Of a DNA stretch of 4,360 nt, positions 1-4,260 are shown piece by piece. The position numbers and the translations under genes were made by a program. This stretch comes from a virus (lineage: Duplodnaviria; Heunggongvirae; Uroviricota; Caudoviricetes). The first letter of the stretch is position 1; the number at the start of each line of letters is the position of its first letter. The notes under the pieces are model-generated. The model did not search any database. It saw nothing but the letters and a program-made list of their open reading frames with translations, and had not been told where the DNA came from. The DNA lies in IMG/VR virus record IMGVR_UViG_2645727868_000005; one strand, 5' to 3'.

Positions 1-1537
1 CGGGAAATACACCGCACAGGATGCAACGACAGCACAGAAAGGGATAATCCAGCTAAGCAGCGCGACCAACAGCACGTCTGAAACGCTGGCGGCAACGCCA
101 AAGGCAGTAAAAGCAGCCAATGACAATGCTGAGAAACGTCTGCAGAAAGATCAGAACGGTGCGGATATCCCTGGCAAAGACACCTTTACGAAAAATATTG
201 GTGCCTGCCGTGCCTTCGGTGGGTCAGTAAGCACAACAACAGGAAACTGGACGACTGCACAGTTTATCGAGTGGCTGGATTCTCAGGGAGCATTTAACCA
301 TCCATACTGGATGTGCAAGGGTTCCTGGTCTTATGGCAATAATAAAATCATTACTGATACTGGCTGCGGTAATATTCATCTCGCCGGAGCTGTCATTGAA
401 GTAATGGGGATAAAGTCAGCGATGACGATCCGCATTACCACTCCGACCACATCCAGCGGTGGCGGAACAACCAACGCCCAGTTTACCTATATTAATCACG
501 GAACAGATTATTCACCTGGCTGGCGAAGGGACTATAACTCCAGAAATAAGCCAACGGCATCAGAGATCGGGGCGTTACCGTCAGGTGGAACAGCAGTATC
601 ATCAGTTAATCTGTCTTCAAAAGGTCGGGTAACCGCGCTGACAGACAATACGCAGGGGGCAACAGGTCTTGAGTTATACGAGGTGTATAACAACGGATAT
701 CCAACAGCGTATGGAAATATCATTCACCTGAAAGGGATGACAGCCGTTGGCGAAGGTGAGTTACTCATCGGCTGGAGTGGTACAAGCGGTGCTCATGCTC
801 CGGCATTTATTCGTTCACGACGGGATACGACCGACGCAAACTGGTCGCCGTGGGCGCAGCTTTACACCTCGGCTCATCCTCCTGCAGAGTTTTATCCAGT
901 CGGTGCACCAATCCCGTGGCCATCAGATACCGTTCCGTCTGGTTATGTCCTGATGCAGGGGCAGACTTTTGACAAATCTGCATACCCGAAACTTGCAGCC
1001 GCTTATCCGTCAGGCGTGATCCCTGATATGCGTGGCTGGACGATTAAGGGCAAACCTGCCAGTGGTCGGGCCGTATTGTCTCAGGAACAGGACGGCATTA
1101 AATCGCACACCCACAGCGCCAGCGCATCCAGTACGGATTTGGGGACGAAAACCACATCGTCGTTTGATTACGGCACTAAATCCACGAATAACATCGGGGC
1201 GCATACGCACAGTGTGAGCGGTACAGCCGCAAGTGCCGGAAACCATACTCATAGTGTCACAGGCGCATCAGCAGTCAGCCAGTGGTCACAAAATGGGTCA
1301 GTACATAAGGTAGTGTCTGCGGCCAGTGTGAATACAAGTGCTGCAGGAGCGCACACTCATAGTGTCAGCGGCACAGCTGCATCTGCAGGTGCTCACGCAC
1401 ATACTGTCGGTATTGGTGCTCATACGCACTCGGTTGCGATTGGCTCACATGGACACACCATCACCGTTAACGCTGCTGGTAACGCGGAAAACACCGTCAA
1501 AAACATCGCATTTAACTATATTGTGAGGCTTGCATGA
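1..1537 (+). CDS. stf: Side tail fiber protein, C-terminal portion (lambda Stf-like); 5' end lies upstream of the window
   Basis: The reading frame beginning at position 2 is open from the window edge to TGA at 1535-1537; the ATG at 311 in the ORF track is internal. The translation carries the conserved tail-fiber box [21 protein letters not shown] (nt 50-112), which I recall from P2 gpH and lambda Stf, a [55 protein letters not shown] segment, seven HxH repeats ([54 protein letters not shown]) and the C-terminus [15 protein letters not shown] that I recognise as lambda-type Stf. Confidence 0.9.
1106..1456 (+). repeat. Protein-level His-x-His repeat array in the tail fiber tip (diverged at DNA level, not a nucleotide tandem repeat)
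   Basis: Seven HxH motifs in G(A/S/N)H(T/A/G)H(S/T) contexts are encoded between 1106 and 1456. The two [15 protein letters not shown] copies use different synonymous codons, so this is an old in-frame duplication. Confidence 0.7.
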
Positions 1538-2436
1538 TTACGCTCATTCTTTCTGCACCAGTAACCGAAATGGCTGAAGCATTTAAGCGGGTATTTGCAA
1601 ATGCAGATAATGTGAATATTGTCGGAAAGCCATTTGAAACAATCAGAGAATTTGACTGCATGGTAAGTGCGGCAAATAGTTTCGGCCTGATGGATGGCGG
1701 TGTTGATGCCGCCATTACCACATTCTTCGGTTCTCAGCTACAGGCCCGCGTTCAGAATCATATTCTTCGTGAATATCTCGGCGAGCAGCCTGTAGGTTCT
1801 GCATTTGTTATTGAAACGGGGCATAATTATCACCCCTGGCTGGTACATGCGCCAACAATGCGTGTTCCGTTGACAATTGACGGAACAGACGCTGTATATA
1901 ACGCAACTTGGGCAGCTCTACTTGCTATCTTTCAGCACAATAAAAACGCAACGACAGACAGGAAAATAAAGACGGTGGTATTCCCTGCAATGGGAGCCGG
2001 ATGTGGTCAGGTGCCGTTTGAAAGCGTTGCCCGGCAGATGAAGCAGGCATGGGATAACTTTAATAAAAAAACAGAATCAATTAACTGGGAATACGCACAA
2101 TCCCGCCAGTCGGCAGTATTTGGCACATATGCATACTGTCCGGGTAATTCTGTTTGCCGTTATGCGGATACTAAATATATTGGATGCGGCGATTATCGGA
2201 CGTATTGCTCACGCTCCGGGCAGGTCTGTATTAACCCTGAACATCAGGCTGATGATGTACTGATACAACATCAGGCTAATAACCGGTTTCGCCCTGGTTC
2301 GCATATACACCGGATTAATCCAGAAAATCCTGTAGGTAATGTCATCTCTGGCGCACATAGCCACGGAAGTAGCATCGTTATTGGTGCTCACACCCATACG
2401 CTCAATAAACAATATTCTGTCTCTGATATTAAGTAG
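1534..2436 (+). CDS. Macro-domain (ADP-ribose binding/processing) protein fused to a Cys-rich, HxH-containing fiber-tip-like C-terminal module
   Basis: 300-aa ORF. Its ATG (1534-1536) overlaps the stf stop (ATGA, 1534-1537), with GAGG at 1525-1528 five nt upstream. Residues around nt 1654-1716 read [21 protein letters not shown], matching the macro-domain N-A-A-N...G-G-G-V...A-I box; nt ~1975-2010 encode [12 protein letters not shown], matching the second macro box (AFPAISTGVYG-like). The C-terminal part has five Cys in [32 protein letters not shown] and two HxH motifs (GAHSHG, GAHTHT). Stop TAG at 2434-2436. Confidence 0.75.
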
Positions 2437-2444
2437 AGGTGAAC

Positions 2445-3029
2445 ATGGATTTCAGAATGAGTGAACAACCACGGACCATAACAATTTATAATCTGCTGGC
2501 CGGAACTAATGAATTTATTGGTGAAGGTGACGCATACATTCCGCCTCATACAGGTCTGCCAGCAAACAGTACCGATATTGCACCGCCAGATATTCCGGCT
2601 GGTTTCGTGGCTGTTTTCAACAGTGATGAGTCATCGTGGCATCTCGTTGAAGATCATCGGGGTAAAACGGTTTATGACGTGGCTTCCGGCGACGCGTTAT
2701 TTATTTCTGAACTCGGCTCATTACCGGAAAATGTCACCTGGTTATCCCCGGAAGGGGAGTTTCAGAAGTGGAACGGCACAGCCTGGGTGAAGGATACGGA
2801 AGCAGAAAAACTGTTCCGGATCCGGGAGGCGGAAGAAACAAAAAACAGCCTGATGCAGGTAGCCAGTGAGCATATAGCGCCGCTTCAGGATGCTGTGGAT
2901 CTGGAGATCGCAACGGAGAAAGAAACCTTGTTGCTGGAAGCCTGGAAAAAGTATCGGGTGTTGCTGAACCGTGTTGATACATCAACTGCACCTGATATTG
3001 AGTGGCCTGCGGTCCCTGTTATGGAGTAA
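2445..3029 (+). CDS. tfa: Tail fiber assembly protein (chaperone), lambda Tfa family
   Basis: ATG at 2445 with SD AGAGGTG (2435-2441) five nt upstream. The product [79 protein letters not shown]...[11 protein letters not shown] is 194 aa and near-identical along its length to lambda Tfa ([18 protein letters not shown]...) as I remember it. The ORF track's GTG at 2439 is two codons upstream and overlaps the SD, so ATG 2445 is preferred. Confidence 0.92.
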
Positions 3030-3141: not shown

Positions 3142-4260
3142 CTATGATATCCCTGAAATGTCCTCTTCAAGCTCTTTTACTGATTTCGCAATTTTAAATT
3201 TAAATTTTCTCTCTATTTCACTATTGCTAAGTTTTTTTTCATTCTCTTTCCCTATCCACATAGAAACAATTTCTCGTTTCTGAGATATATGTAGATTGTC
3301 AAAGTTAGGTATGTATTTAAAAGTCTCCGCTCTACCCCTGCGGAGTTCATAGAAAGTTTTAATCAAAGACTTTGGTTTTATTTCTGATGAAAGGCCGAAT
3401 CGGCGGATAAGATTATTGATCGTATGATTAACAGCTCGAAGTTGAGCTGTTGACGTTATTTGTGAGAAGTACGATACCCATCCCAATCGTTTACCTTCAA
3501 ACACACATCCCGTAATTCTAAGATTTAGTTTCCACTGACAATATGCAACAGCTCGTTCTTTATCGTGCTTATTTTTAGCTTGTAGTAGAGCGTGTCTATA
3601 TGCAGTAAAAATTTTTGCTAAGGATGACTCAAATCTAAGAATGCTCTCATGTTTTATCAATAATTCTCGATTTTTTATGTGGTAGCCCAAAAAGTTGAAA
3701 CTTTCATCCAAGCTGCCTACTTTGGATTTTGAGTTCTCTTCATTTAATGGATGTGGGTTTAAATTTAATGATTGAAGCTTATCAATGATATGAGATGCAA
3801 TTTTTGTTGCTTGATCTTTTTGCGTTAAAATAAGAATGTCATCAACGTATCGCATGTACCATATGTCATGCATTTTATTGATTTCATTGTCGAAATCAGA
3901 TAGTGATATTTCAGCTAAAATGTTTGATATTGCTAACCCCTGAGGTACTCCTCTGGTATTATTAGGGACACCTTTGCTTCCTGTACTTCCACTTACAGTA
4001 GGCACGATTAATGATGATGTTATTAACTGCCTAATTTCTTTTTTTCTAATCTTATTTTTTATTGCATTAAATATCAATTTATGTTCAATTGAAGGATAGA
4101 AACTTTTGAGATCTATTTTTGCATATTCAGCATATAGATCGCTGTTTAATGCATTTTTCAATAAGTCAATTACTGTATGTGGTAGTTTTAATCTGGAGTT
4201 AGGATATATTTCTGTAAGGCATACCAGATTCGCCCGGATCTTCCGAAGTTGTTTCCACAC
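3142..4260 (-). CDS. Reverse transcriptase, compact single-domain prokaryotic RT (candidate defence-associated RT; class unresolved)
   Basis: 372-aa minus-strand ORF from GTG (plus 4258-4260) to TAG (plus 3142-3144). RT motifs present: motif 1 IDLKSFYPSI (plus 4087-4113), motif B RGVPQGLAISNILAEISL (GVPQG at plus 3937-3951), motif C YMRYVDDILIL (YVDD at plus 3838-3849), motif 7 FNFLGYHI. An in-frame TGA lies 11 codons upstream of the GTG with no other start in between. The gene is AT-rich (roughly 30-35% GC) against about 50% GC in the fiber genes. Confidence 0.85.
   Translation of the reverse strand: MWKQLRKIRANLVCLTEIYPNSRLKLPHTVIDLLKNALNSDLYAEYAKIDLKSFYPSIEHKLIFNAIKNKIRKKEIRQLITSSLIVPTVSGSTGSKGVPNNTRGVPQGLAISNILAEISLSDFDNEINKMHDIWYMRYVDDILILTQKDQATKIASHIIDKLQSLNLNPHPLNEENSKSKVGSLDESFNFLGYHIKNRELLIKHESILRFESSLAKIFTAYRHALLQAKNKHDKERAVAYCQWKLNLRITGCVFEGKRLGWVSYFSQITSTAQLRAVNHTINNLIRRFGLSSEIKPKSLIKTFYELRRGRAETFKYIPNFDNLHISQKREIVSMWIGKENEKKLSNSEIERKFKFKIAKSVKELEEDISGIS

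Follow-up and report, generated by a model that had tools for sequence, protein, structure and literature searches.

A question raised by the DNA examined here is why the gene of a macro-domain protein should lie between a tail fibre gene and a fibre chaperone gene, and why its product should end in histidine motifs of the kind found in fibre tips. The DNA is a 4,360-nucleotide stretch (hereafter the window) of the caudoviral record IMGVR_UViG_2645727868_000005. It carries three tightly packed genes on the + strand, namely the 3' part of stf (the side tail fibre gene), an open reading frame (ORF) of 300 aa with a Pfam Macro domain (the macro ORF, 1534-2436) and tfa. A first-pass annotation of this DNA had described the macro protein as a chimera with a fibre-tip-like end, and had suggested recombination at the HxH repeats of tail fibre genes as the origin of the insert. 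The comparisons reported below indicate that the ORF is a composite of a full macro enzyme and a Cys/HxH extension, and that its HxH tail is an old, selected feature of the whole family, not the product of a recent exchange with the neighbouring stf.

The first part of the macro ORF (residues 1-195; 1534..2118) contains a match to Pfam Macro (PF01661) at 68.6 bits against a cut-off of 22, with profile positions 1-118 of 118 aligned to residues 44-169. AlphaFold2 gave a moderate model of this part, with pLDDT mostly 65-91 and weaker values in the loops. When this model was compared with the PDB using Foldseek, the best matches were yeast Poa1/Ymx7 (1NJR, E = 4.8e-9), MacroD2 and YmdB (1SPV), and further matches with a macro fold were macroH2A and TTHA0132. 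Of 56 stand-alone homologues, at least 95% have identical residues in N48-x5-D-G-G-V-D58 and at G154 and G158 within the G154-A-G-C-G158 loop; we take this N-x6-GGVD type motif and the second, Gly-rich phosphate loop to be counterparts of the MacroD/YmdB hydrolase motifs. The domain is complete and apparently catalytically intact, and is predicted to bind or hydrolyse ADP-ribose.

Residues 1-195 show 47-56% identity to chromosomal stand-alone macro proteins from Chloroflexi, cyanobacteria, Acidobacteria and others, whose median length is 208 aa and which end near window residue 200. No conserved operon partner of these chromosomal genes was found among 72 loci. Because stand-alone proteins about 50% identical to the macro domain lack residues ~200-300, the word chimera is a fair description of the domain architecture, and the alignments identify the ORF as a macro enzyme to which a Cys/HxH extension is joined. 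Among phage macro proteins, those from jumbo, rhizobial and cyanobacterial phages are less similar (30-39% identity). Some database records label macro homologues 'phage tail protein'; the jumbo-phage homologues with such a label were considered as evidence for a place in the virion and rejected, since they are short stand-alone proteins in non-structural neighbourhoods.

The extension begins with a Cys-rich linker (residues 196-243; 2119..2262), which ends in HQxDD and has five cysteines (202, 208, 218, 225 and 232). Four of them are conserved, C202, C225 and C232 being invariant and C208 nearly so. AlphaFold2 models the linker as a small beta-rich unit of four strands (pLDDT 57-67), which is probably a metal-binding knuckle. 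The HxH tail follows (residues 244-293; 2263..2412) and contains GSHIH at residues 255-259 (nt 2296-2310), GAHSH at 273-277 (2350-2364) and GAHTH at 284-288 (2383-2397), with spacings of 18 and 11 residues. The first-pass annotation had seen two such motifs at the C-terminus; GAHSH and GAHTH do lie at the true in-frame end of the protein, and the third motif, GSHIH, stands just upstream of the point at which that description began.

The last seven residues, YSVSDIK, belong to no module. Alleles of 289 aa end after NKQ, and relative to these the window has a 1-nt indel near nt 2413-2415 (CAATAATTCTG versus CAAT-ATTCTG), by which the TAA stop is lost and the macro ORF gains seven codons through the old spacer, reaching the ribosome-binding site (RBS) of tfa. 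This read-through segment with its TAG stop (2413..2436) was recognized as former spacer from DNA alignment with Chuche, L013 (a related locus) and pTB212.

Is the tail fibre-like beyond its paired histidines? The appropriate comparison is the neighbouring stf itself (2..1537, + strand), which matches Pfam Phage_fiber_2, Collar and Phage_fiber and runs off the left end of the window. A gp37-type receptor-binding tip makes up its last 211 aa, which match the tip of T4 gp37 (2XGF_A) at E = 3.2e-85, each HxH aligning with an HxH. Seven HxH motifs (1106..1456) are found in it, at residues 369, 401, 415, 451, 465, 474 and 483, and the final three are spaced by 9 residues. In the 2XGF structure, each HxH motif, contributed by three chains, coordinates one iron ion on the axis of the trimeric needle; six histidines per metal ion on the trimer axis are thus one mark of the needle repeat. 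The consensus of the macro tails, xIGAHxH[T/G/A][V/I/L], is close to that of the fibres, xIGAHxH[T/S][V/I], and position frequencies agree between 78 tail and 91 fibre sites (I47/G87/A61 in tails, I36/G90/A39 in fibres), with IGAHTHTL found in both sets. The commonest HxH spacing is likewise 9 residues in both, accounting for 70 of 201 intervals in the family tails and 98 of 175 in the cognate fibre tips. An hhalign comparison of the tail with the fibre-tip profile gave 90% probability (E = 1.4e-6) over only 18 columns. The local BLOSUM62 score of the window tail against the fibre was 61, as compared with 33.9 +/- 5.6 for shuffled tails (p = 0.001), and the same shuffle test at 10 loci gave z = 3.3-7.1 in nine of them. 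Thus, the earlier view that the C-terminus is fibre-tip-like holds at the level of the motif, and the alignments argue for a protein resemblance that is real but short. Some quirks are also common to tips and tails, as anecdotal observations: YIG occurs in Salmonella tips as well as tails, and HNHYI occurs in Erwinia fibre tips and the Izhakiella tail, with HNHFI in the Izhakiella tip.

Such a resemblance could have arisen in a recent event, in which recombination involving the HxH repeats of the adjacent stf captured the macro gene or gave it its tail. In favour of this, a DNA match between the two genes does exist. The tail sequence attggtgctcacacccatac is present at 2380-2399 as had been reported, and its stf partner, attggtgctcatacgcactc, lies at 1412-1431 rather than 1419-1438 and is identical at 16 rather than 17 of 20 positions. 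Three of the differences fall within the six IGAHTH codons and are all synonymous, and the match includes an exact run of 11 nt. However, the DNA similarity does not go beyond what a common peptide would produce. Local alignment of the DNA scored 13 at best, against 11.1 +/- 2.0 when synonymous codons were re-drawn (p = 0.21), and shuffling the codon order gave p = 0.002 for the same alignment; taken together, these two nulls mean that the DNA signal reflects the shared peptide. At related loci, 57 distinct tail/tip pairs were compared with the synonymous null, and none exceeded it at p < 0.05. Hence, when the tail is aligned with the stf end, only the protein similarity exceeds chance, and recent DNA exchange with the local stf is rejected on the evidence of synonymous-codon resampling in the window and the 57 related loci. 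In addition, tails are not systematically nearer to their own fibre than to foreign ones: no consistent excess of co-variation between the tail and its own tip was detected, and of ten rows only L003 and L014 had the cognate tip as the highest scorer.

The joints of the insert give the same answer. Macro-less phages with 96-98% identical stf 3' end and tfa are available for comparison (SPF_0923, PhiR29_1 and 2H10; lambda is ~92% identical). In these phages the sequence reads ...GTGAGGCTTGCATAATGGCATTCAGAATGAG, and the stf TAA overlaps the tfa ATG, while the window reads ...GTGAGGCTTGCATGATT, then the macro gene, then ...TAGAGGTGAACATGGATTTCAGAATGAG. The stf homology to the macro-less phages spans the whole HxH region and continues to the last codon. 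On the other side, the window Tfa is nearly identical to that of the macro-less phages except for codons 2-3: tfa starts with MDF (2445-2453) instead of MAF, the right end of the cassette replacing the first tfa codons, and homology resumes at TCAGAATGAG. This comparison places the cassette exactly at the junction of the stf stop and the tfa start. Accordingly, joints within the HxH repeats are rejected in view of SPF_0923, PhiR29_1 and lambda. Since the joints lie outside the repeats, the DNA identity shows no excess and the tail is ancestral to the family (occurring throughout Escherichia, Salmonella, Citrobacter, Enterobacter, Erwinia and Izhakiella), capture or recombination at the HxH repeats is not supported for this insert; the earlier evolutionary reading is mostly wrong, and we regard a recent chimera as extremely unlikely.

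Fibre alleles and macro tails alike do have HxH regions that resemble mosaic joints, which is a further point on the side of that explanation. The same last ~45 fibre residues, macro gene and tfa are found behind differing upstream fibre sequences, with the points of divergence at or near HxH repeats; this fits a role of the repeats as mosaic joints in fibre genes. The longest Salmonella tails, P0040 and P0058, which have five HxH-like units, resemble a join of two tail types (as compared with P0051 and P0032). Their join, ...IGAHTHTIDIGAHNHAIHTGAYAY + LHAVSPGIHSHGYHLNPEYLSGVKNDV, is located at an HxH unit, and therefore the repeats may act as recombination joints inside the macro family itself.

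The junctions are also informative about how the macro gene is expressed. At the stf/macro junction, GAGGCTTGCATGA (1525..1537), the final stf codons contain a GAGG RBS, and the start codon of the macro gene shares bases with the stf TGA (ATGA). The same GAGG serves as the RBS of the macro gene here and as that of tfa in the macro-less phages, and the cassette brings a new RBS (AGGTGA) for tfa, placed in the 8 nt between the macro stop and the tfa start (RBS and tfa together, 2437..3029, + strand; tfa from its ATG at 2445 to 3029). The tfa product is a lambda-type tail fibre assembly protein (Pfam Caudo_TAP, E = 1.6e-44), the C-terminal part of which matches Mu Tfa (5YVQ_B). The order of fibre (ending in ...IVRLA and a stop), ATGA, macro gene and tfa was found in 87 of the 87 loci examined. 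The 4-nt overlap of stf and macro genes was scored by script in 80 of them, and the other seven are script artefacts. No excess of promoters or terminators was detected around the macro gene, which therefore lacks the flanking promoter and terminator of its own that define a moron; its GC content is slightly below that of stf. A Stf-macro fusion by -1 frameshift was also considered and rejected: no slippery heptamer was found by reading the sequence, and a stop at 1513-1515 leaves just 18 open nt in the macro frame ahead of the ATG, which makes such a fusion unlikely. Judged from these junctions, the macro gene is an optional cassette within a gp37/Stf-type tip-tfa module, and its signals predict translational coupling.

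The macro ORF belongs to a family found in prophages of Enterobacterales and has many homologues in Escherichia, Salmonella, Citrobacter, Enterobacter and Erwinia. Their common layout is a macro domain, a linker of the type YCPx4Cx...GDYRTYCxxSGxxC...HQxDD, and two to five (I)GAHxH units, the ends of which vary. The extension contains one or more HxH in 158 of 161 distinct full-length members and two or more in 135, and its cysteines number 4-6. Of 5426 complete E. coli genomes, 128 carry the macro gene. Annotated carriers include lambdoid elements (the THO-003 prophage and Gifsy-1 of Salmonella LT2) and P2-like ones (Chuche and SEN4/5), and the gene is also carried by plasmids with phage structural genes, pTB212 and pEC17CM13_2 (a pseudogene in the latter). 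A divergent branch in Izhakiella australiensis (L016-L018), 51% identical overall, has the same fibre-macro-tfa order; its Cys pattern is CGC...CDCGCG...CRC and it has more histidines, with GAHTH, GAHHH and RHNH units kept.

Two further records deserve mention. A MAG contig binned as 'Bacillota' (L012, JAEWTL010000041.1) carries a 91% identical fibre-macro-tfa module of the E. coli type, and this taxonomic assignment is most likely mis-binning or contamination. In Salmonella phage SEN34 (L004), a decayed Salmonella-type macro fragment was found at ~3950-4150, reading ...GTAFVIETGN and then, in another frame, YASARQNAVFSTTAYCPSK...DDIYIGAHSHAKRN and a stop; it lies beside an inserted O-acetyltransferase gene and downstream of an unrelated fibre/tfa pair.

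Is the tail still of use to the protein that bears it? Pooled pairwise dN/dS was 0.12-0.14 for the macro domain, 0.20-0.36 for the Cys linker and 0.36-0.49 for the HxH tail. The tail thus evolves fastest and varies from two to five units; individual HxH losses and truncated alleles exist, and the final seven residues here are translated spacer, all of which would be expected if the tail were a decaying relic, that is, a functionless leftover of a fibre 3' end or a translated spacer. On the contrary, its dN/dS is clearly below 1. Moreover, in an alignment of 34 sequences, G255 is invariant and H257, H259 and H277 are conserved in at least 90%, and HxH units are kept even where the remaining extension has diverged beyond recognition. 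A relic is highly improbable, and the dN/dS values, being below 1, show that the tail is under selection although it is the faster evolving part.

A selected tail need not be a fibre-derived one, and the strongest alternative to the interpretation preferred here holds that it is a generic Zn-, Ni- or Fe-binding or stabilising tail, fibre-like by convergence, on a soluble cytoplasmic enzyme that hitch-hikes in a mobile tip-tfa module. Several observations point in this direction and weigh against a needle-like tail. HMMER searches with residues 196-300 against 1.84 billion representative proteins recovered only family members or fragments and one spurious repeat protein, and tblastn searches of phage genomes with the extension recovered only family members; a tail module common to other proteins was rejected on these grounds. 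No fibres were found by tblastn or phmmer with the tail or extension as query. Three tails gave no match to Pfam Phage_fiber (PF03335) at E <= 10, while the stf tip, used as a control, matched it in 5 stretches (E = 5e-7). The conserved C-terminal end of the fibres is present in all upstream fibres and absent from all macro tails. The window spacings of 18 and 11 differ from the fibre spacing of 9. The tail is modelled by AlphaFold2 as a monomer with pLDDT <40, whether in the whole protein or in residues 196-300, a result that is neutral with regard to a fold that depends on oligomerization. Common E. coli alleles have lost a single HxH (IGTPTH, IGAPTH or GAYNH), each of those examined (L104, L105, L111, L112, L114, L116, L120, L011-L012 and L113) retaining at least two of the three, and a few truncated alleles have no tail. 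The Izhakiella Cys pattern is quite different, and on this view the conserved trait would therefore be richness in Cys and His. Furthermore, the last ~45 fibre residues, macro gene and tfa travel together behind different upstream fibres, and an identical stf tip and Tfa are found in phages that lack the cassette, which means that the cassette is dispensable for fibre assembly; the synteny could be mere hitch-hiking.

Against a generic tail, the flanks of the motif match the fibre unit as well (I-G-A before and T/S-V/I after), beyond the histidines themselves; the 9-residue spacing is the commonest in tails and fibres alike, and the profile alignment reached 90% probability. A hitch-hiker would not need so exact a takeover and replacement of translational coupling signals, and in the 87 loci the macro family was never found elsewhere in the phage genome. 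We consider a generic tail on a hitch-hiking enzyme unlikely on balance, though it is an explanation to be taken seriously.

What, then, might the composite protein do? We tentatively favour a metal-held, probably trimeric macro enzyme, made late and countering ADP-ribose-based host immunity; by analogy with known proteins, this reading seems to us to have a good chance of being right, if a somewhat less than even one. Binding metal, the tail and the Cys cluster would keep the enzyme in an oligomeric state, for which a trimer like that of gp37 is the most probable form. The enzyme would be made late, simultaneously and in step with the fibre, and the neighbouring Tfa may aid its folding; the strict fibre-macro-tfa order would fit folding with the aid of Tfa or attachment to the fibre. 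The macro domain could then remove or sequester ADP-ribose adducts or ADP-ribose-derived signals, so that NAD/ADP-ribose-based immunity would be blunted late in the infected cell or, should the virion carry the protein, in the next infection. For phage macro genes near morphogenesis genes, a role in countering soluble ADP-ribose signals has been proposed (PMC9503650), and phage DarG-like macro proteins neutralise DarT (PMC11481870, PMC11825919). In Pseudomonas phages, side tail fibre and chaperone alleles set how sensitive the phages are to type II Thoeris (bioRxiv 10.64898/2026.06.04.730250). Two points count against such a function here: the protein is not known to counter any defence system, and the PADLOC match to DarG is negligible (E = 0.005, 14.4 bits, with no stretch qualifying alone).

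A narrower version treats the protein as a passenger of fibre assembly, its tail being an iron-held trimeric needle folded by Tfa. The enzyme would then sit on the fibre apparatus or be dosed with the fibre, and would neutralise ADP-ribose-based immunity triggered by, or aimed at, the fibre-chaperone complex. We regard this version as quite unlikely.

The location within a host-recognition module also allows a different reading, in which the protein is a tip-borne accessory of adsorption. Its macro domain would then have as its target not ADP-ribose inside the cell but a ligand on the cell surface, which it would bind or de-esterify, or it would alter the receptor in some other way. Esterase chemistry does exist in the macro fold, as MacroD/YmdB-type macro domains deacetylate O-acetyl-ADP-ribose, and some homologues are named 'phage tail protein'. 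Nevertheless, the domain is ~50% identical to chromosomal stand-alone proteins and retains all the motifs of the ADP-ribose site, which favours a universal small nucleotide substrate. The 'tail protein' names appear to have been propagated, the jumbo-phage namesakes lying in non-structural contexts, and no virion proteomics for SEN4/5 was found in the literature. An adsorption accessory is therefore very unlikely in our opinion, and the ADP-ribose-directed enzyme remains the preferred reading.

The surroundings of the module fit a prophage. In near-identical E. coli chromosomes the genes stand in a lambdoid prophage in the order gpJ, Lom, Stf, macro and Tfa. Downstream of tfa, on the - strand and in AT-rich DNA, the window has a reverse transcriptase (RT) gene (3142-4260) of the defence type (PADLOC RT_UG17, E = 3.5e-117). 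Its counterpart in E. coli THO-003 encodes 456 aa, and a SLATT-domain gene comes after it. Homology of the window to THO-003-type genomes stops at 4228, and from 4213 on the window matches a prophage regulator/YdaT-toxin region that is present in 1515 genomes. The RT gene therefore appears to be 5'-truncated, through a rearrangement with an overlap of ~16 nt.

Phage macro domains are increasingly viewed as tools against NAD/ADP-ribose-based immunity, and iron sites of the HxH type characterise fibres and spikes. Each of the two parts of the macro ORF is well known, and their fusion and fixed gene order seem to be undescribed; a literature search found no paper on the macro plus Cys/HxH architecture or on the fixed fibre-macro-chaperone order. 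If the protein is indeed a client of Tfa or a component of the virion, phages would have a novel means of delivering or dosing an enzyme of counter-defence, and the chaperones of tail fibres a novel class of substrate. On the plain reading, too, the family offers a clean, testable case, as the same fibre and chaperone occur naturally with and without the cassette.

Among known systems, the needle of T4 gp37 (2XGF) and the lambda Stf tip, which is homologous to it, share with the macro tail the I-G-A-H-x-H-T/S-V/I unit and its commonest spacing of 9 residues. Unlike them, the macro tail has only two to five units, placed at the end of an enzyme, without a collar, a head domain or the conserved fibre end. 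It also lacks a Pfam Phage_fiber match and has, in the window, spacings of 18 and 11; a trimer and iron binding are proposed for it by analogy. The membrane-piercing P2 gpV apex spike (bioRxiv 10.1101/2023.02.25.529910) resembles the proposed tail in that HxH motifs on a three-fold axis hold a metal ion; it has, however, a single apex site in a beta-helical spike, and the likeness is one of motif, no sequence kinship being expected. For the purpose of a phage macro domain, the most concrete precedent is offered by the DarG-like antitoxin mimics (PMC11481870, PMC11825919, PMC13309987), macro-type counter-defence enzymes that reverse DNA ADP-ribosylation by DarT; a comparable role for the macro ORF would be by analogy. 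The mimics show no meaningful similarity to it, occupy another genomic position and have no fibre-like tail. For the enzyme itself, the known counterparts are the stand-alone MacroD/YmdB/Poa1-like macro proteins of phages and bacteria, which have the full domain with the conserved ADP-ribose-site motifs as well, but end at about residue 200 and lie in non-structural or unconserved contexts. To this plan the family of the macro ORF has added a Cys/HxH extension of about 100 aa and a fixed site between the fibre and chaperone genes.

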